This document shows positions 1,850-9,599 of a stretch of DNA of 64,000 nucleotides, piece by piece. This stretch comes from an uncultured Planctomycetota bacterium (lineage in GTDB: Bacteria; Planctomycetota; Phycisphaerae; Sedimentisphaerales; UBA12454). A program made the position numbers and the translations under genes. Each line of letters opens with the position of its first letter. Position 1 is the first letter of the stretch. The notes beneath the pieces were generated by a model. It had not been told where the DNA came from. It made no database searches and saw only the letters and a program-made list of their open reading frames with translations. The stretch spans positions 67,750 to 131,749 of the forward strand of contig CAINDG010000038.1 of the NCBI GenBank assembly GCA_903847315.1, read 5' to 3'.

Positions 1850-2875
1850 TTAGCAAAGATTTACACTTTTGCATATTGGACAACCACCGAGGCAAATCTT
1901 TCTATGAGAACAATCCGGGCAATTATCTGCAAACAATTTCTCTCGGAATTCTCTAAACATATTTGAATTCTGCCATGTGTCTAGAATGTTACCATCATTG
2001 ACAGGAACACCTACCTTAGTTGGTTCCATGAACGAGCATGGATACATTCGCATATCTTCTGATATGAACATTGAAAATCTAGCTGCTTCACATGCATCGT
2101 AGAATGATGGTTTAATGTTTGTAAAATATGCAAGGCCAGACACCATACAACTATCGAAACCAATTCGAAAAGATTGTTCTCGATTTTGTACTAATTCGAA
2201 AAAACATTCTAAATCTTTTTTGTTTACTGATGAAAGTTGTTTTGAAGTTTGTCTGCCAATTGGTTTATAGTTTAAAAATATAATAGCATTTACACCAGAA
2301 AGAAATGGCGGAGGTTCTTTCAGCCAAGAAATTGCGGTACCTATGCTCAGAGAATCAAGAACGAAATGAATATTTGTCTTCATACCGACATTGATAAGCT
2401 TTTTTAAAGCCGCCTCAAACTCATTATAAGGACTGTATGCGCTTACGGCAACGGCGCCACAGTATTTACATGATGCTTTAATTACATCAGAGAATAACCC
2501 TCGCCCGTTTGACGTATAAGAAGGAATAATGCCATATTTCTCTCTGGTCAGTTTCAGGATTTCAGCAAACTTCGGATGCTGATTGGGGTTTCCACCTCCA
2601 AGAGCAACTTGTAAAACTCCCATTGCAGCCGCTTGCTTCATTATAATTTCGTAATTTGCAAGACTTATATGTTTACCTTTAGTGCTTGAATTACGATAAC
2701 AGATTAAACAATTTCGATCACACCATCCAGTTATAGATATATCCATCAACTCAGGTCCATGTTGAGACCATTTAGGCTCAAGGAATCCTTGTTCCTCAAT
2801 CCTAGCGAAAAAGCCTGTATGAAGATTAAATACAGTGGTGTAGTGTTCATTGGCGAAATGTTTAATATGGAGCAT
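1850..2875 (-). CDS. Radical SAM enzyme with C-terminal SPASM (auxiliary 4Fe-4S) domain; gene 4 of the island operon
   Basis: 341 aa. CX3CX2C motif WCDRNCLICY (C52/C56/C59, nt 2699-2722). GGGNP resembles the GGE-type SAM motif. C-terminal CPDCSHRKICLGGC is the CX2CX5CX3C SPASM signature (nt 1880-1921), with extra Cys at 335 and 341. The ATG lies 6 nt after the upstream stop. Confidence 0.85.
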   Translation of the reverse strand: MLHIKHFANEHYTTVFNLHTGFFARIEEQGFLEPKWSQHGPELMDISITGWCDRNCLICYRNSSTKGKHISLANYEIIMKQAAAMGVLQVALGGGNPNQHPKFAEILKLTREKYGIIPSYTSNGRGLFSDVIKASCKYCGAVAVSAYSPYNEFEAALKKLINVGMKTNIHFVLDSLSIGTAISWLKEPPPFLSGVNAIIFLNYKPIGRQTSKQLSSVNKKDLECFFELVQNREQSFRIGFDSCMVSGLAYFTNIKPSFYDACEAARFSMFISEDMRMYPCSFMEPTKVGVPVNDGNILDTWQNSNMFREFREKLFADNCPDCSHRKICLGGCPICKSVNLC

Positions 2876-2881
2876 AAAATA

Positions 2882-3301
2882 CTACCAACCACACTCCAAA
2901 GCATTTATATATAATTCAGGACGATCTATTTCGAAGATCTCAGTACACAAAAAGCTCTCTGGCGATTCACCCTCGCTGCGTAAAGTACCAATGTAAACAT
3001 CCATACCCACTTCGAGAGCATGCTCTGCTCGTTTAGCGGTTGATGGAGAGTGAATGTGTCGTTTCAGTAAAGACTTAATATCTGATGTTGGCCCCCAATA
3101 TTCGGATTTAGCTGCATCTTGTACATTTTCCATCTTTGAACAGAGCAACTCAAACAATTCCTTTCCAAAGGATTCTAAATGTGAACCTTGCTTTATCCCC
3201 AAGGCTTCTAGAAATACTTCCTTATTCGGTTTTCCTTTAGAGATGATAATAAATGAAGTCGATGAACTATTCGTAACATAATCAAATCTAATTTTCATCA
3301 T
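2882..3301 (-). CDS. Orphan 139-aa protein; gene 3 of the island operon
   Basis: No family recognised. N-terminus is MMKIRFDYVTNSSSTSFIIIS and the C-terminus ends ...ELYINALECGW. The ATG at 3301 overlaps the preceding gene by 14 nt and has GGAGAAG immediately upstream. Confidence 0.7.
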   Translation of the reverse strand: MMKIRFDYVTNSSSTSFIIISKGKPNKEVFLEALGIKQGSHLESFGKELFELLCSKMENVQDAAKSEYWGPTSDIKSLLKRHIHSPSTAKRAEHALEVGMDVYIGTLRSEGESPESFLCTEIFEIDRPELYINALECGW

Positions 3302-3737
3302 CTTCTCCTATGAGTTCAGCATTTAAGGTTTTCAAAATAACCTTGCGACCATTTTCCGTGTCTTCCCAAAGCGTATCTATTTGATAATCTCTGCCCCACC
3401 GAAAACTTTTAAGTAAAAGCAAGCAATTATGTGATTTAACCAATTTAGATATTTCTGACAAATAGATTTCATCGATAGCATATTTATGATAAAGGAAGCT
3501 TAGTATATTTGTGTACTCTTCCTTGTAAAATTTTAAATATTCGGCTCTTAAATCAATAGATGTATCAATAAAATATGCATATATTCTTTCAACAAGTTCT
3601 GACATATATGTCCCCGGTATTACATTGGCATTTTTTAAAATATTTTTAAGCTTGGGACGATTTTTTGAAATAACAATAATTCCATTATTTGTCCTTACAA
3701 GAAAAATTTTTCCATTTTGTTGCATTTTCTCTTTCAT
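3288..3737 (-). CDS. Orphan 149-aa protein with acidic C-terminal tail; gene 2 of the island operon
   Basis: No family recognised. It ends ...AELIGEDDEN. The ATG lies 3 nt after the NTPase stop (TAA-agt-ATG, 3743-3735). Confidence 0.7.
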   Translation of the reverse strand: MKEKMQQNGKIFLVRTNNGIIVISKNRPKLKNILKNANVIPGTYMSELVERIYAYFIDTSIDLRAEYLKFYKEEYTNILSFLYHKYAIDEIYLSEISKLVKSHNCLLLLKSFRWGRDYQIDTLWEDTENGRKVILKTLNAELIGEDDEN

Positions 3738-3740
3738 ACT

Positions 3741-6668
3741 TTAAATACAATCCTTTTTAAAACCTCGAAGATGTTGCATAATATGGTTGTTCATAATCTG
3801 TGTTGCAATTTTTGGACGGCGTTGCTTAAATTCCCAAAAGATATCCTGAACTGGGTGCATATAGTCATATCCTTCTATATTCCAAAGATATAACAAAATC
3901 CTAACTAAACCTTTATATGCAGCATCCCATTTATTACCAAGTAATAATGGTTTTAGATGTTCTACAAGTCTATCAATAGGATAAATTCCCAGATATTTGT
4001 CGAATGTATATTTACACAAAAATTGAAAAGTATCGTCATTCACGGTATCGAAAATATCAAATAAAAGGAAGATATTTGCATGTGGGTATATTTGAGAATC
4101 GTACCGACAAAGCAAGTTGGCAACAATATGCGGCGCTGTAGGATTATTCTGATTACATGCTTCTTTTAACACTTTGTCATCGTCCGCAGTGATTGCTTCT
4201 TCATCCAGTTCAAAGATATGTTCATAAAAGACATTTTGGTACCATGGTAAATATTTTATTATATCAATAGCGTTATTTTCTTTTTTTTGTCGTAAAGCGA
4301 AAAAGAGATATTCTTGTAATCCTTCTGCTACAGTGAGCTTAGGAACAGTTAATTTTTCGACGAGATGTTTAAATTTAGCAGCATCTTCTTTTAAAACAAT
4401 ATTTATAAGGTAGTTAGAAATCAGAAAATCTCTACAAGTATCGAATGTAAAATTTATGACTTCATTTTGGACAAATATTTTATTTGTATCGATGTCTTTT
4501 CTTAGCAAAATGTCTTCATCTATCAACTCTAGTAGTAACTTTGATTGATCTGTGTCAAAAATCGAAAATGGCACATCTGAATAAATATTTTGCTTTATCA
4601 TCCAACTGATAATCTTTTTTAGGATAGCCCAATAAGGTCTTTGTTTTCCTATAGGAGTATTTATTGAAGGGGTCTGATCATTAAAATCGCCGAATTTCTT
4701 CTGGAAATATTTATGAAAGATTTCTTCCCGTCTTATATGACGGATAAATGGAATTCGTTTCAATGATTTTGCGGTATGGTCGCCATAAGCCTCACAGAAA
4801 ACTCTTAACAAAAAGGGGTCATTTTCAAATTGTTTAAAAGCATGTTCCGATATTCTATTGGCATATATTTTGAAAAATTTTAAATAACCCCTAACTAATC
4901 GTTGTTTGTGTTCTTCAGACATATGCCGATGGATTTCGCGTTCTATAATCATTTTGTTTGCGAAACTGCTTTTGAGCAAATTTCCAAATCTGATGTCAAA
5001 ATATTCTGAGCGGCAAGTTAATATTACCCGAATATGAGAGTATTCAATACATTTTTCGATAAATCTTTCTATTTCAGATGAAAAGACCTTTATTTCTGGA
5101 TGTTCATTGATAGCATCAAACAAAATAATACCTGCTGTGCCTCTTCTTCTTGCTTCTTCATTTATATCCTGCAATACAGTATCAAATAAACCATTATTTC
5201 CATATATACCTCGTGCAAAATAATTTTGCAGTTCACCATGACTAACATTTGCTAATTCCTTGCCAGTAAAAAAGACGCACGGAATACTACGTTTGGTAAG
5301 ACAATTTTCGGCTAAGTCGCATACGAAATTAGTTTTTCCTTGGCCCGCCTTTGAAACAATGGCGAATACTTTAGCTTTAGCTATTTCACTTTTTTCAAGA
5401 AAAAGTTCCTTAACATGTTCGTTAAGAGAGTGTGCTTTGTCACAAAAATGCCATGAAGTTTCTTCAATAATATGCCTTTTTAATTTTGGAGCTTGACGGA
5501 TTAGGGATGTGCGACTTTTACGGTCCAATGCAGATAATTTTCGGGAAATATTCTCTACAATTTTTTGAAAACGAATAATGTTTTTATCTGTATGTTCAAA
5601 GTTAAATTTGAATTTTTTAAAATTTAAATTGAATTCTAGAGGTTTGAGCCCCGAATGCTTAAGTAAACGATTAATTTCATACAAATTGATACTTTCGAAT
5701 TCATAGAGTAACTTTTCCAAAAAAAGAGCTGGATGACAGAATATTCTTGCTTTTTCTTTGACATCACCTACTTCAATAAATATTTCCGGAATGTATTTTT
5801 TGCTGTTTTTTTCAGCGGCAATGCGATTTTGCAGACGTTTGGTCAAAATAGCCGTGATACTTTCTCCGGCTTGTTGTAGGACTGGTACTTTAAAAGTTGC
5901 TTCTGCCGAAATCCTTTCCGCTAAAGAGTTTCTTGTAATCTCTCCACCATTTATTGCAAAGTCGGTAGCCATTTTATACAAAATGGCATGTAAACTCGTT
6001 GCCTTACGAAAATCTTTGTCACCAACGGTTTCTTGTAGGAGATGAATACAATCTAAAGTGTCGCGTCCTGTTCTTGCGGTAAAATCGAAAGATAGAACAA
6101 TAAAATGTTTTAGTAAATGATGAACTTGAATTTTGGTTGGTTTTTTCCCAATTACTTTTTTTATTCCTGCTTCAAATGCATTCAATATATTTGTTTTAGT
6201 TTTAAACTTCAGCGTTTTCTGGTAAAATGCGTCGGGAGTGGATGATGTTTTAGCCCATTCAAGCAATTCCGCAACATGCCTTTTGACAGTTGAATTATTA
6301 CACACTTCACCAATTGCCAATCCTACACTATCATCATTCTTAAAATTTTTATCGGATAATTGATCCCAAACTTCGTTTACTACTTTGATAAAATCATCGT
6401 TCTTTGAAAATGTGATATTGTGTTTAACTTGCAAACATAATCGCTTTTTTATGCCTGTCGAAGTTTCACAATACAAAACAATATCATCAATGGGACAATC
6501 TCTATTTTTTTGTTGTAAACCAACTTCTTTGATTAAAGCATCTGGCATGCCACGAGGTGCTTCTTGACGCATGAGTCGGAGCAAGTAATAAATAGCTACT
6601 AGGCGGTCGAAGTAATCTCCACCACCACCCATAGAAAACGGATTTACTGCTGCTGCTTTCTTAGCCAT
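3741..6668 (-). CDS. NACHT-like STAND P-loop NTPase with PD-(D/E)xK-like (Cap4/DUF4297-like) N-terminal module and long helical C-terminal region; gene 1 of the island operon
   Basis: 975 aa. Walker A is SKAGQGKT (aa 439-446, nt 5331-5354). Walker B is IILFDAINE (aa 514-522, nt 5103-5129). A downstream RVILTCRSE block resembles the NACHT TSRP segment. The N-terminus has GGGGDYFDRLVAIYYLLRL, then PIDDIVLY..(x)..LCLQVKH (aa 59-83, nt about 6423-6491), a D..QxK arrangement like restriction-fold nucleases. About 350 C-terminal aa are unassigned. Confidence 0.8.
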   Translation of the reverse strand: MAKKAAAVNPFSMGGGGDYFDRLVAIYYLLRLMRQEAPRGMPDALIKEVGLQQKNRDCPIDDIVLYCETSTGIKKRLCLQVKHNITFSKNDDFIKVVNEVWDQLSDKNFKNDDSVGLAIGEVCNNSTVKRHVAELLEWAKTSSTPDAFYQKTLKFKTKTNILNAFEAGIKKVIGKKPTKIQVHHLLKHFIVLSFDFTARTGRDTLDCIHLLQETVGDKDFRKATSLHAILYKMATDFAINGGEITRNSLAERISAEATFKVPVLQQAGESITAILTKRLQNRIAAEKNSKKYIPEIFIEVGDVKEKARIFCHPALFLEKLLYEFESINLYEINRLLKHSGLKPLEFNLNFKKFKFNFEHTDKNIIRFQKIVENISRKLSALDRKSRTSLIRQAPKLKRHIIEETSWHFCDKAHSLNEHVKELFLEKSEIAKAKVFAIVSKAGQGKTNFVCDLAENCLTKRSIPCVFFTGKELANVSHGELQNYFARGIYGNNGLFDTVLQDINEEARRRGTAGIILFDAINEHPEIKVFSSEIERFIEKCIEYSHIRVILTCRSEYFDIRFGNLLKSSFANKMIIEREIHRHMSEEHKQRLVRGYLKFFKIYANRISEHAFKQFENDPFLLRVFCEAYGDHTAKSLKRIPFIRHIRREEIFHKYFQKKFGDFNDQTPSINTPIGKQRPYWAILKKIISWMIKQNIYSDVPFSIFDTDQSKLLLELIDEDILLRKDIDTNKIFVQNEVINFTFDTCRDFLISNYLINIVLKEDAAKFKHLVEKLTVPKLTVAEGLQEYLFFALRQKKENNAIDIIKYLPWYQNVFYEHIFELDEEAITADDDKVLKEACNQNNPTAPHIVANLLCRYDSQIYPHANIFLLFDIFDTVNDDTFQFLCKYTFDKYLGIYPIDRLVEHLKPLLLGNKWDAAYKGLVRILLYLWNIEGYDYMHPVQDIFWEFKQRRPKIATQIMNNHIMQHLRGFKKDCI

Positions 6669-6721: not shown

Positions 6722-6751
6722 ATTATACGGTGGAGATAAGGGAAAAGGCAA
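6722..6751 (-). promoter_or_regulatory. Putative sigma70-type promoter of the island operon
   Basis: Minus strand reads TTGCCT (6751-6746), an 18-nt spacer, then TATAAT (6727-6722). This sits about 55 nt upstream of the ATG at 6668. An AGGT SD-like sequence lies 12 nt before the ATG. Confidence 0.35.
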
Positions 6752-6894: not shown

Positions 6895-7497
6895 ATGACG
6901 AAACACCCTGAAGATGTTTTATATAAATTAAAAATGGATGTTGAAAACGAGTTTTTTGCGGAGAATCCAATTAAAAAATTTCCGGAGGATTTTTTAAGCG
7001 GCCGAATGAAAAAAGAATTGGCGAAACGTATTTCTTATCCTCGTCTTTTCAAATCAAATATCAGGCTTACCAAGGACCATCGGATTAGGTATAAGAAGAA
7101 AATAAGCATTGCAGAAGCGATGGCGGGGACTGCGCTGGTTGGGGCGATGGAGGGAAAGTCGAAAGCGAAGTATGTGGAGATAGGACTGCCGGCGGGCAGG
7201 CTTAAATTAAAGATGGAAAGGAAAGTTCAAATCTGCTTTGAAAGCGGAGCGGTACTTATGGAGTTTTCAAGTTTAGAGCGGGCGAAATATGTGCTTTACT
7301 CAAGGAAGATCCGTTCGACAAGCTCAGGACAGGCCGTATATAAAGTGCCAAAGAGCGAAATTGCGGTCAAAAGGGCTGTGGCGAGATACGAAAAGTATCG
7401 GGCAGAAATACGGGAGAAACTTGTAAAGGCGTTTATGGCGAGAAATGTGGAAAGAGGAGCTGCAGAAGGGTTTGCGGGGTTAGTGATTGAAGAGTAA
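6895..7497 (+). CDS. Hypothetical protein (200 aa)
   Basis: Long ORF with AGGTGAG 6 nt upstream of the ATG. No recognisable motifs. It is divergent from the island operon and intermediate in composition. Confidence 0.55.
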   Translation: MTKHPEDVLYKLKMDVENEFFAENPIKKFPEDFLSGRMKKELAKRISYPRLFKSNIRLTKDHRIRYKKKISIAEAMAGTALVGAMEGKSKAKYVEIGLPAGRLKLKMERKVQICFESGAVLMEFSSLERAKYVLYSRKIRSTSSGQAVYKVPKSEIAVKRAVARYEKYRAEIREKLVKAFMARNVERGAAEGFAGLVIEE

Positions 7498-7578
7498 ATA
7501 GAGGCGAGGTAAACTATCGCCTTTCATTGGATAATCTGGTAAGATACTTTTGTAAAAACTGTCGGGACAAGAGAATAT

Positions 7579-9123
7579 ATGGCGAAAGAAAATCAGGAAC
7601 GAAAACAAAAAGATTACGTGGGCCTGGCGATAGTGATTTATCTTATAGCCGGGTTCTCCATACTCAAATACTATCGCTACCTAATCGATCCCGATGCCGT
7701 AAGCTATATTGGTATCGCCCAAAAATATTTGGCGGGCAACTTCGGCGACGCCATTAACGGATACTGGAGTCCGCTGCTGAGCTGGCTGCTGGCGCCTTTG
7801 CTCTTTATCGGGATAGAGCCGCTGCTTGCGATAAGGATATTGAATTTGCTTATCGGCCCCGTGGTAATCCTGGTCATGGCTTTAATATTGCGTCAATTTT
7901 CGATATCCGCCGGCGTCAGAAGAGCGATATTATTAATCACTATCCCCGCAACGTTATCATTTGCTATGGTAACTGTCACGCCAGATTTGCTGATAACATT
8001 GATAATACTGATTTATTTTCTGATTGTGTTTAAAACAGATTACGCGGCCACAAAACGCAACGGGATACTTTGCGGGTTTTGGGGCGGACTCGCTTATCTA
8101 ACAAAAAGCTACTGCTTCCCATTTTTCATAAGTCATTTTGTTTTAATGAATCTTTTTTGCTGCCTGAAATATCAGGACAGGGAGACGAGATTAAAAGTCG
8201 TTACTAATTTTATCTGCGGACTGGCCGTTTTCGGCGTAATCAGCGGTATATGGATAACGACTTTGAGCCTGAAATACCATAAGCTGACGTATTCAACGGC
8301 GGGAAACTATAATATATCCCTCATACATCCCAAAGAAGGCGAAAGCAAGCATCCTATGCTTTACCAGGGATTGCTTGTGCCGCCGAATCCAACCGCGATA
8401 AGTATGTGGGAGGACCCTTCGTTTATAAAAATCTCAAAATGGAGTCCGTTTGAATCGCCGGACGCATTCAAATATTATCTGAATCATATTGGAAAGAATA
8501 TCGGCAAAACTTACGACTTCTTCAAAGAGATTTCAATTTGGGTTATACCTATAATTATCGCAGGGATTTTATTTTTATTACAAAAACCGGAAAAGATTCT
8601 CACACAACACCAGATACTCTATCCCATTGTAAGCATATTTTTGTACGCCCTGGGATATAATCTGGTTATGGTGGAACGAAGGTATTTATGGCCAATATTT
8701 TTCCTGATATTGATTTTGGGCGGTTATATAACAGATAAATTATTTCAAAGCAGTTTTTTTACGAAAACACGAAAAGCCGGTTTGTATATTTTATTTATTA
8801 TTCCATTTATATACGGGCCGATTGTGCCGGGATTACTATCCACGGCAGATGCAAACAAAACTTATTATTCTTTAAGCCAGTATATGAAAACATCTATTCG
8901 TCCCGGCGACCGGATTGCCTCGAACGACGAGTGGGAGCCGTCTTTATATGCGGCTTACTACCTGAATGTGCAGTACTACGGGATTCCAAAAAATAATATC
9001 GACAAGCAAATTTTGTATGAAGAATTGCGCAAGTATAACATCAACCGTTACCTGATATGGGACAGGAAAGTACTCAATGGTGTTGAAGATCTACACGTAA
9101 ACGTGGGAACTATTCAATGGTAA
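7579..9123 (+). CDS. Polytopic membrane protein, GT-C / glycosyltransferase family 39 (ArnT/PMT-like)
   Basis: 514 aa with more than 10 hydrophobic segments. The first-loop DPDAVSYIGIAQ region and overall layout resemble GT39/PMT_2 proteins by eye. Confidence 0.5.
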   Translation: MAKENQERKQKDYVGLAIVIYLIAGFSILKYYRYLIDPDAVSYIGIAQKYLAGNFGDAINGYWSPLLSWLLAPLLFIGIEPLLAIRILNLLIGPVVILVMALILRQFSISAGVRRAILLITIPATLSFAMVTVTPDLLITLIILIYFLIVFKTDYAATKRNGILCGFWGGLAYLTKSYCFPFFISHFVLMNLFCCLKYQDRETRLKVVTNFICGLAVFGVISGIWITTLSLKYHKLTYSTAGNYNISLIHPKEGESKHPMLYQGLLVPPNPTAISMWEDPSFIKISKWSPFESPDAFKYYLNHIGKNIGKTYDFFKEISIWVIPIIIAGILFLLQKPEKILTQHQILYPIVSIFLYALGYNLVMVERRYLWPIFFLILILGGYITDKLFQSSFFTKTRKAGLYILFIIPFIYGPIVPGLLSTADANKTYYSLSQYMKTSIRPGDRIASNDEWEPSLYAAYYLNVQYYGIPKNNIDKQILYEELRKYNINRYLIWDRKVLNGVEDLHVNVGTIQW

Positions 9124-9599
9124 CGAAACTTGAAGATATAAAAAAACTGATAATATGCTGCGGAGCGGTTTTGGCGGTCGGGTTTGCGGGGGCATTTTTT
9201 ACAAACTCCGGGCTCGACTGGTATCAGGGACTTGCGAAACCAGTCTTTACTCCGCCTAACCGGATATTCGGGCCGGTCTGGACGATTCTTTATCTATTGA
9301 TGGGCATAGCCCTGTTTTTAGTGTGGCGAAAAGGATTTGCAAACGCGGCGGGCAAGACGGCGCTGGCGGCGTTTATCCTGCAGTTTGTTTTTAACGCGCT
9401 TTGGACGCCGATTTTTTTCTGGGCGAAACAACCTTTGATTGCGCTTGGCGATATCGTAATATTGTGGCTGGCGATAATAGCAACTATAGTCAGCTTCTGG
9501 AAGGTTTCGAGGGCGGCGGGGATTTTACTTGTGCCATATATAATATGGGTGAGTTTCGCGGCTGTTTTAAACGCCGTGATTTGTATGCTTAACCGCTAA
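9117..9599 (+). CDS. tspO: TspO/MBR family tryptophan-rich sensory protein
   Basis: 160 aa with five TM segments. WYQGLAKPVFTPPNRIFGPVWTILYLLMG matches the TspO signature. It overlaps the upstream gene by 7 nt. Confidence 0.85.
   Translation: MVTKLEDIKKLIICCGAVLAVGFAGAFFTNSGLDWYQGLAKPVFTPPNRIFGPVWTILYLLMGIALFLVWRKGFANAAGKTALAAFILQFVFNALWTPIFFWAKQPLIALGDIVILWLAIIATIVSFWKVSRAAGILLVPYIIWVSFAAVLNAVICMLNR

Follow-up and report, generated by a model that had tools for sequence, protein, structure and literature searches.

The described system closest to the locus reported here is the KpAvs2 operon of Klebsiella pneumoniae, which encodes KpAvs2 together with the accessory proteins Avap1, an enzyme of the radical S-adenosylmethionine (SAM) type, and Avap2 (Bechon et al., Nat Commun 2024, PMC11564622). 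According to the passages of that paper drawn on here, KpAvs2 is a single protein of 1352 amino acids (aa), and Avap2, identified by HHpred as DUF6375 with PF19902 as the paper's definition, binds KpAvs2 between its nuclease and NTPase domains both before and after infection and is required for defence, its deletion having been impossible. The same passages report Avap1 to be required against phage T2 and not against SECphi18, and viperin-type nucleotides not to have been found for it; the functions of both accessory proteins are left open by the authors, and a tag is not mentioned in the passages covered. Here we analyse a four-gene cassette in a 64,000-nucleotide (nt) stretch of DNA from an uncultured Planctomycetota bacterium (contig CAINDG010000038.1; this whole stretch is referred to as the window), with a focus on its third gene, an open reading frame (ORF) encoding 139 aa at positions 2882..3301 of the minus strand. 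We assign a probability of about 0.55 to the 139-aa protein being a tagged client of the radical SAM/SPASM enzyme encoded next to it, in an anti-phage cassette built around an Avs2-like STAND (NLR-like) NTPase. It is probably a client rather than an ordinary peptide precursor, because its serine-rich N-terminal tag almost always accompanies one radical SAM enzyme.

The locus resembles the KpAvs2 operon, for which anti-phage activity is proven, in combining an Avs2-like STAND gene, a gene for a small accessory protein and a radical SAM gene in one operon; it differs in having four genes instead of three and in the length of the STAND protein, which is about 880-1065 aa in the cassettes described here compared to about 1350 aa in the KpAvs2 operon. 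On the minus strand, on which all features discussed lie unless stated otherwise, the Avs2-like STAND NTPase (975 aa; 3741..6668) is followed by an untagged paralog of 149 aa (3288..3737), by the tagged 139-aa protein and, as the last gene, by the radical SAM/SPASM enzyme of 341 aa (1850..2875). We surveyed this arrangement by tblastn of the four window proteins on 80 genome loci kept from the search for relatives, spanning Bacteroidota, Pseudomonadota, Bacillota, Chloroflexota, Cyanobacteria, methanogens and others. A radical SAM homolog stands directly 3' of the homolog of the 139-aa protein in 80 of 80 loci, which bears out the link to the radical SAM/SPASM gene drawn in a preliminary description of this DNA. 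A STAND homolog lies upstream in 77 of the 80, the exceptions being two short contigs and the locus L076. In 76 of 77 parsed loci a small ORF stands between the STAND gene and the tagged gene, and 75 of the 77 (exceptions L013 and L076) have an ORF 121-184 aa long whose end lies at the tagged gene's start. These data show the four genes to stay together in bacteria as well as in archaea.

The sequence data indicate that the 139-aa ORF is a real gene and not a chance frame, since 222 cluster representatives match it at E <= 1e-3, 258 positions in species genomes encode a relative, variation at third codon positions is unrestricted beneath the conserved tag residues and the tag motif occurs in only one of 15,329 ORFs of at least 40 aa in the source genome. 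Nearly all of the representatives are 120-148 aa long and align end to end. The translation starts with MMKIRFDYVTNSSSTSFIIIS and ends with ELYINALECGW before a TAG stop (2884-2882), the termini of the protein being MMKIRFDYVTNSSSTSF and ECGW, and the ATG of the enzyme gene follows after a gap of 6 nt (tatttt, 2881-2876); the NSSS start, the ECGW end and the 6-nt spacing given in the preliminary description were all confirmed, on the minus strand. An AGGAG sequence lies 3 nt 5' of the first ATG and 6 nt 5' of a second one (3298). The second ATG is probably the true start, because the relatives begin with MKI and because the spacing to AGGAG fits it better, and the distance of the tag from the N-terminus would therefore be constant, with the tag probably beginning at residue 1 of the actual protein. 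The 149-aa ORF overlaps the start of the 139-aa ORF by 14 nt (11 nt if counted from the second ATG), the genes thus being tightly packed.

Conservation within the family is concentrated at the N-terminal end, in a tag comprising residues 2-17 (MKIRFDYVTNSSSTSF; 3251..3298), which we propose, on the basis of its conservation, of the structural model and of the tags found in phages, as both the handle and the modification site for the radical SAM enzyme. In 148 relatives, only N11, S12 and S13 are invariant, and M2, K3, S14, T15, F17, G35 and G105 are conserved in at least 90%. The ends were counted in 158 relatives of 115-150 aa: the motif N[ST]S[ST] is present in 157 of them and the last residue is aromatic in 148 (Trp in 118, Tyr in 21, Phe in 9), while at position -3 Cys is found 81 times, Asn 26 times and Asp and Ser 14 times each, and the Gly at -2 is variable. 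In the 77 species loci the protein has a terminal Trp in 74, and a hand count of the listed ends gave Cys at -3 in 11. The aromatic end is therefore kept and the Cys-Gly preceding it is not, as the comparison of 148/158 with 81/158 tells. Of the two ends that the preliminary description had proposed for a conservation check, the NSSS motif turned out to be invariant (148/148) and the last residue to be aromatic, whereas the CGW sequence as such is not conserved. Within the C-terminal segment YINALECGW (residues 131-139; 2885..2911), the terminal aromatic residue is specific to the defence-cassette subfamily.

The serine codons of the tag follow a pattern in the defence-cassette family: among 74 distinct tag DNA strings, the first serine always has an AGY codon, with TCN used (almost) always for the second and third. 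In phage tags, AGY and TCN codons are both used at each serine, and therefore the amino acid itself is what is kept. The possibility of the tag being a nucleotide-level element was ruled out, as every third codon position beneath it varies.

The link between tag and enzyme extends to large phages. The viral loci found with the alignment of the 139-aa protein fall into six that hold the four-gene cassette (L084-L089) and 68 that differ from it, and in the latter tandem arrays of two to six genes for tagged proteins lie beside a homolog of the radical SAM/SPASM enzyme (tblastn E ~1e-31 to 1e-63). Each gene of these arrays starts with MK[IV][RK]xD[FY]VTNSSS[ST]S[FY], and the encoded proteins are 46-262 aa long with dissimilar endings. 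Strict-tag ORFs were found in 66 of the 68 loci, the enzyme within the locus in 53 and both in 52, altogether yielding 160 distinct tag proteins; of ten phage records whose locus was without the enzyme, eight were searched, and seven of these encode it elsewhere on the record. As this set had been found through the tag, we ran the reverse test anchored on the enzyme. Of the 80 phage loci fetched by the enzyme alignment alone, 53 contain ORFs with the strict tag within 6 kb, 150 in number and without exception on the strand of the enzyme; a looser tag, for example with Gly for Asp at position 6 or with another start, was found in 21 of the other 27, resulting in a total of 74 of 80. The tag and one radical SAM/SPASM family are thereby shown to form a nearly obligate pair in both search directions.

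The same set separates the two ends of the protein. Only one of the 160 phage tag proteins has a terminal Trp, the other ends being H, G, D, E etc., and the aromatic end is absent outside the defence subfamily. On the sequence evidence, the feature tied to the enzyme is thus the N-terminal tag and not the CGW end. The C-terminal Cys-Gly-Trp, which the preliminary description had suggested as a reactive site, is not supported as such, with Cys at -3 in 81/158 relatives and 11/77 species loci, a variable Gly at -2 and a Trp end in 1/160 phage tag proteins. The terminal aromatic residue would rather serve a docking or folding role specific to defence than take part in the chemistry of the enzyme.

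A tagged ORF next to an enzyme relative is also encoded in another genome of the phylum (L162:604-2206, minus strand), in which a distant relative of the enzyme (E 1.8e-56) is preceded by an ORF of 111 aa. The latter starts with MKILRRHLGFTTNSSASS, a variant tag (..GFTTNSSASS), and its remainder is an acidic linker with a membrane helix at the C-terminus.

The enzyme itself is, judged by its domains and cysteines, a SPASM maturase. It matches the Pfam families Radical_SAM (E 1.4e-11) and SPASM (22.9 bits; cut-off 21.5) as well as the SPASM model TIGR04085 (33.8 bits; cut-off 27), and it shows the combination typical of the class, a CxxxCxxC motif (C52, C56 and C59) and a C-terminal cysteine-rich domain, with three invariant cysteines (C243, C262 and C280) and three others conserved in at least 90% (C319, C328 and C332). 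None of the NCBIfam equivalogs was reached, the best score being 61.5 of 400 bits for GeoRSP and others being 54.8 bits for WgkB, 52.5 of 265 bits for MftC (TIGR03962) and 38.8 of 381 bits for PqqE. Its nearest solved relative is SuiB (E 3.4e-17), to which it aligns over SuiB residues 135-441 only, that is without the N-terminal recognition element (RRE) of SuiB, followed by PqqE (6.8e-11), SkfB (5.9e-9) and anSME (3.9e-5), and among phage families it matches phrog_7293 (E 7e-24). Neither the enzyme nor any of the four cassette genes contains an RRE/PqqD domain according to Pfam and NCBIfam. Before the cluster motif, about 45 residues are conserved (Y..FN..TGFF.R...EPFW..GPEL.DI), which are common to the phage enzymes and to the radical SAM protein of the KpAvs2-type operon described below; we suggest that this part of the enzyme may receive the tag.

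SPASM enzymes such as SuiB, SkfB, PqqE and anSME act on peptides or proteins. Two members of the class, anSME, which converts a Ser or Cys of sulfatases to formylglycine, and QhpD, which forms thioether links in QhpC, illustrate that SPASM enzymes without an RRE can modify serine residues and full-size proteins. The pairs SuiB/SuiA (streptide), SkfB/SkfA and PqqE/PqqA are alike to the window system in the enzyme class and in the enzyme gene adjoining that of its client, and leader-guided SPASM systems for peptides made on ribosomes and modified after translation (RiPPs) share with it the use of a single enzyme for several clients that have one N-terminal recognition sequence and variable remainders. 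In contrast to these, the clients described here are folded proteins of 90-260 aa in which the shared element consists of 16 residues at the extreme N-terminus, there is no RRE/PqqD, protease or exporter, and the setting is the conflict of phage and host, not natural-product synthesis. The client motif of anSME is (C/S)xPxR; while anSME is a detectable relative of the window enzyme (E 3.9e-5), this motif is not found in the tag MKIRFDYVTNSSSTSF, which has no Pro or Arg in register. Thioether chemistry can be excluded in the tag, because the tag has no cysteine.

A comparison with mycofactocin maturation had led the preliminary description to consider the C-terminal end. The cassette is indeed alike to MftA/MftC in that a radical SAM/SPASM gene stands next to that of a client with an aromatic last residue; it is unlike it in lacking MftB or another RRE, in encoding a folded client of 139 aa and in the phage clients having no aromatic end. 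The enzyme is not MftC, since it reaches only 52.5 bits against the TIGR03962 cut-off of 265. A change in which the terminal aromatic residue is decarboxylated or crosslinked, with the CGW end being the modification site as in MftA, would agree with the aromatic end of 148/158 relatives, with the Trp in 74/77 species loci and with the Trp-crosslinking enzymes SuiB and WgkB (54.8 bits) as well as MftC (52.5 bits) being among the relatives. We nevertheless consider it improbable: the Cys at -3 is not conserved, the scores for the WgkB and MftC families are far below their cut-offs, the phage clients have other ends, and the C-terminal strands belong to a confidently folded core, in which the last block of the model still has a mean predicted local distance difference test (pLDDT) score of 84.

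This model, predicted by AlphaFold2 from the alignment of relatives, has a pLDDT of 90.0 and a predicted template modelling score (pTM) of 0.83, and it argues for the 139-aa product being a folded alpha/beta domain and not a short peptide. Its N-terminal part consists of a strand (14-21), two helices (27-33 and 43-56), a short strand (57-59) and three further helices (60-63, 75-82 and 86-97), its C-terminal part of a strand (101-108), a helix (113-119) and two strands (124-127 and 130-133); the confidence for residues 1-10 is low (block mean 49). The protein thus does not have the form of a RiPP precursor, i.e. of a short peptide with leader and core, given its 139 aa, the 120-148 aa of its relatives and the domain predicted with a pLDDT of 90. 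It agrees instead with the fallback offered in the preliminary description, a folded partner or scaffold, into which the pLDDT of 90, a length that is the norm of the family, and the accompanying paralog and STAND NTPase all fit. The fold could not be assigned: Foldseek of the model against PDB and BFVD returned nothing at E <= 1e-3, the best VIA-align hit of the wide search of solved structures had a Z of 3.4 without a fold match, and searching the PDB by sequence profile gave nothing convincing (best E 0.0079, an unrelated cyclodeaminase). Pfam, NCBIfam and PADLOC hold no family for the protein, PHROGs gave weak matches only (phrog_12043, E 0.002; phrog_7397, E 0.22, residues 2-23), and in the ESM Atlas the 139-aa protein falls into unnamed clusters only, with nothing usable for the 149-aa paralog. 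No longer, fused protein containing the family was found among 7998 candidates, which is weak evidence.

After removal of the tag, 159 phage bodies form 44 BLAST clusters. For a comparison by hhalign at a threshold of 80% probability, 12 phage body families with at least four members each were combined with the two families of the cassette, A2 and A3. Only the A2-A3 pair exceeds the threshold; F1-A2 reaches 62%, F6-F12 40% and all the rest at most 21%. Pfam has no family for the 12 phage body representatives, two of which are matched by phrog_7397 (function unknown) as the only hit. The largest well-defined family of phage clients is F2 (18 sequences; A5, e.g. L107:6905-7417), which ends in ..FSHH and has invariant E154, H170 and H171, the terminal His-His and the Glu 17 residues before it resembling a metal or active site. 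The F2 model has a pLDDT of 88.9, with residues 1-10 below 50 (block mean 35) and a strand starting from residue 13; it has no fold match either (best VIA Z 5.7, to a helical hairpin only). Since residues 1-10 have a low pLDDT in two independent models with bodies above 88, the tag is predicted to be flexible.

The tagged proteins could alternatively be remote homologs sharing one small enzyme or ligand-binding fold, in which the NSSS loop after the first strand forms the active or binding site and the radical SAM enzyme supplies or consumes the ligand. The similar order of elements in the 139-aa and F2 models points in this direction, as do the invariant polar residues E154, H170 and H171 of F2, which look like a site, and the 62% for F1 and the A2 body. 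We give this little credence, as the residues 1-10 of the tag are unpacked in both models, 65 of the 66 pairs among the 12 phage families score at most 6% by hhalign (F6-F12 being the pair with 40%), the L162 client with its acidic linker and membrane helix has no room for such a fold, and no known fold or family matches.

For the function of the client in the cassette, the comparison with the KpAvs2 operon can be drawn more closely, since an operon of this type is encoded in a genome of the same phylum (locus L246 of genome G462), comprising a radical SAM protein (300 aa), a DUF6375 protein (134 aa; 107 bits to PF19902), a nuclease ORF and a STAND protein (1219 aa). In this operon (L246:8763-12851), the nuclease part, an ORF of 134 aa, and the STAND protein of 1219 aa are separate ORFs, unlike in the single-protein KpAvs2. 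The radical SAM proteins of the window and of L246 match by hhalign with 98.8% probability (E 1e-16, 213 columns), so that the radical SAM accessory gene (PF04055) is common to both, and the STAND proteins are homologous by BLASTP (E 1e-8, 24% identity over 356 aa), the window protein being much shorter. The systems differ in their accessory proteins: no SPASM domain is found in the L246 radical SAM protein by Pfam and its small protein is DUF6375, whereas the window enzyme has a full SPASM domain and the small proteins beside it are not DUF6375. PF19902 matches none of 148 members of the NSSS family and none of 44 members of the paralog family, and it is absent from the source genome, from five cassette genomes and from 400 scored gammaproteobacterial genomes. 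An hhalign comparison of the small-protein families with a single L246 DUF6375 sequence gave 0.3%; a search for homologs of this protein returned that protein alone. By eye, its first 20 residues are laid out in a similar way, with MK, Tyr at position 7 and two adjacent Ser that precede a hydrophobic strand, which is an impression and not a result. Three plasmid matches (H9, H26 and H46) were considered as further KpAvs2-type operons and rejected on inspection.

From this comparison another explanation arises, according to which the 139-aa protein is an unmodified subunit of the STAND protein like Avap2, the tag serves for binding, e.g. as a strand added to the enzyme or to the STAND protein, and the radical SAM enzyme has another target, which would be a small molecule, nucleic acid or phage protein. 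It is in line with the confident folded domain (pLDDT 90), with an untagged paralog accompanying the tagged protein and, in the passages of PMC11564622 referred to above, with Avap2 binding KpAvs2 before and after infection and the radical SAM protein being dispensable against one phage. It would leave unexplained, however, why a near-identical tag of 16 residues is found on 160 phage proteins whose bodies are dissimilar, beside one and the same enzyme family and in contigs in which a STAND homolog was not found. Furthermore, it is known that SPASM enzymes of the SuiB/SkfB/PqqE/anSME branch act on peptides or proteins. Viperin-type nucleotides are reported as not found for Avap1 in the passages covered (PMC11564622). 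We therefore regard an adaptor role without modification as unlikely, if by no means negligible.

Several observations weigh against the protein being a client modified at its tag. The aromatic residue is kept as the very last one of the protein, so that chemistry at this end may still occur in the defence subfamily, and 6 of 80 enzyme-anchored phage loci have no tag within 6 kb. The models of the 139-aa protein and of F2 have a similar plan, with the first strand after the tag, a helical insert and a strand-helix-strand unit, and therefore the bodies may belong to one very divergent superfamily with the tag being its functional motif and not a portable handle; the hhalign probability of 62% for F1 and the A2 body adds to this. 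Defence against SECphi18 was spared by inactivation of Avap1 according to the passages covered of PMC11564622, and the enzyme is hence not always needed for the accessory protein. Avap2, being DUF6375, has no detectable similarity to the 139-aa family, and the transfer of STAND binding to the latter is therefore an analogy only. Finally, both the modification of the tag and its binding by the enzyme are steps that we infer.

The STAND NTPase matches the PADLOC Avs2 models with E 3.4e-23 to 1.7e-6 and the NCBIfam Avs2 model with 76 bits, which its cut-off of 1000 exceeds by far. Its N-terminal ~270 residues have no family match, residues 1-280 have no match by sequence in the PDB, and the alignments of STAND homologs mostly begin near residue 265-290 of the window protein, for which reason we regard the N-terminal domain as the part that varies between loci. 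In the RefSeq annotation of an Agrobacterium cassette, the STAND protein is named 'SMEK domain-containing protein' and the two small genes are 'hypothetical'. The paralogy of the two small proteins is visible by profile-profile comparison only: BLASTP of the 149-aa protein against the 139-aa protein returned nothing, while hhalign of the two families (the A2-A3 pair) gave a probability of 97.9% (E 4e-13, 106 columns; 98% in a scripted repeat). As this alignment opens just after the tag and closes before the tail, the paralog has neither the NSSS tag nor the YINA..W tail. Pfam has no match in 44 members of the paralog family.

Two loci deviate from the general order. In L013 (5156-8017), a metagenome-assembled genome (MAG) of the Paludibacteraceae, the STAND protein and the untagged paralog form one frame of 953 aa, which in this single case is either a natural fusion or a missed stop; a natural fusion would argue for the paralog working on the STAND protein. 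In L076 (6913-10582), a deltaproteobacterial MAG, three tandem tagged copies (ending in ..RY, ..RY and ..GY) precede the radical SAM gene, which resembles the phage arrays; no STAND homolog was found in this locus and no ORF between a STAND and the tagged gene.

The cassette (1850-6668) has a GC content of 0.30-0.37, the flanks one of 0.42-0.48, and this difference agrees with horizontal acquisition. It is also found on plasmids of Agrobacterium, Rhizobium and Rhodobacter, and the enzyme family occurs in only one other of 400 genomes sampled from the phylum; because of its low GC content, its presence on plasmids and its rarity in the phylum, the cassette resembles a mobile defence island. Upstream of the STAND gene, a weak promoter-like site (6722..6751) has 10 of 12 consensus matches, in a region for which promoter and terminator scans gave site numbers no higher than in shuffled sequences. 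Further upstream, the plus strand (window 6895-9599) encodes an ORF of 200 aa without a family match, a multi-pass membrane protein of 514 aa and a membrane protein of 160 aa.

Taking the 139-aa protein as a tagged client, we propose that the enzyme, being without an RRE, would bind the flexible N-terminal tag directly and alter it by radical chemistry, for which the invariant Asn-Ser-Ser-Ser is the most likely site, with oxidation, epimerisation and ether or C-C crosslinks as candidate reactions. The matured protein, probably together with the paralog, would then become an accessory or regulatory subunit by docking onto the STAND protein, in parallel to Avap2 and KpAvs2, and the C-terminal aromatic residue would have its docking or folding role in this defence-specific step. 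In a different NTPase conflict system, a radical SAM domain was described as one that 'likely modifies a peptide-effector' in the part of the article considered here (Kaur et al. 2020, PMC7159879), and protein thioether crosslinks in methanogens are the subject of a 2026 paper (PMC13692751). A description of the tag or of the four-gene cassette was not found in the full-text literature, subscription journals not being covered. More broadly, and tentatively, as we place it somewhat short of an even chance, one radical SAM/SPASM family would recognise and alter a 16-residue serine tag on many folded clients on both sides of the phage-host conflict: phages would carry arrays of clients, bacteria and archaea would have wired one client and its paralog to an NLR-like STAND protein, and the modification would arm or gate the receptor.

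Such a role would offer a testable function for the radical SAM accessory genes of Avs2-type immune operons, which are so far unexplained, and it points to whole proteins being modified post-translationally under the guidance of a short tag at the N-terminus. The pair of tag and enzyme is common in large phages and marks many proteins without a known function, i.e. a block of the 'dark matter' of phages and defence systems, and its study might reveal new radical chemistry on serine or asparagine.

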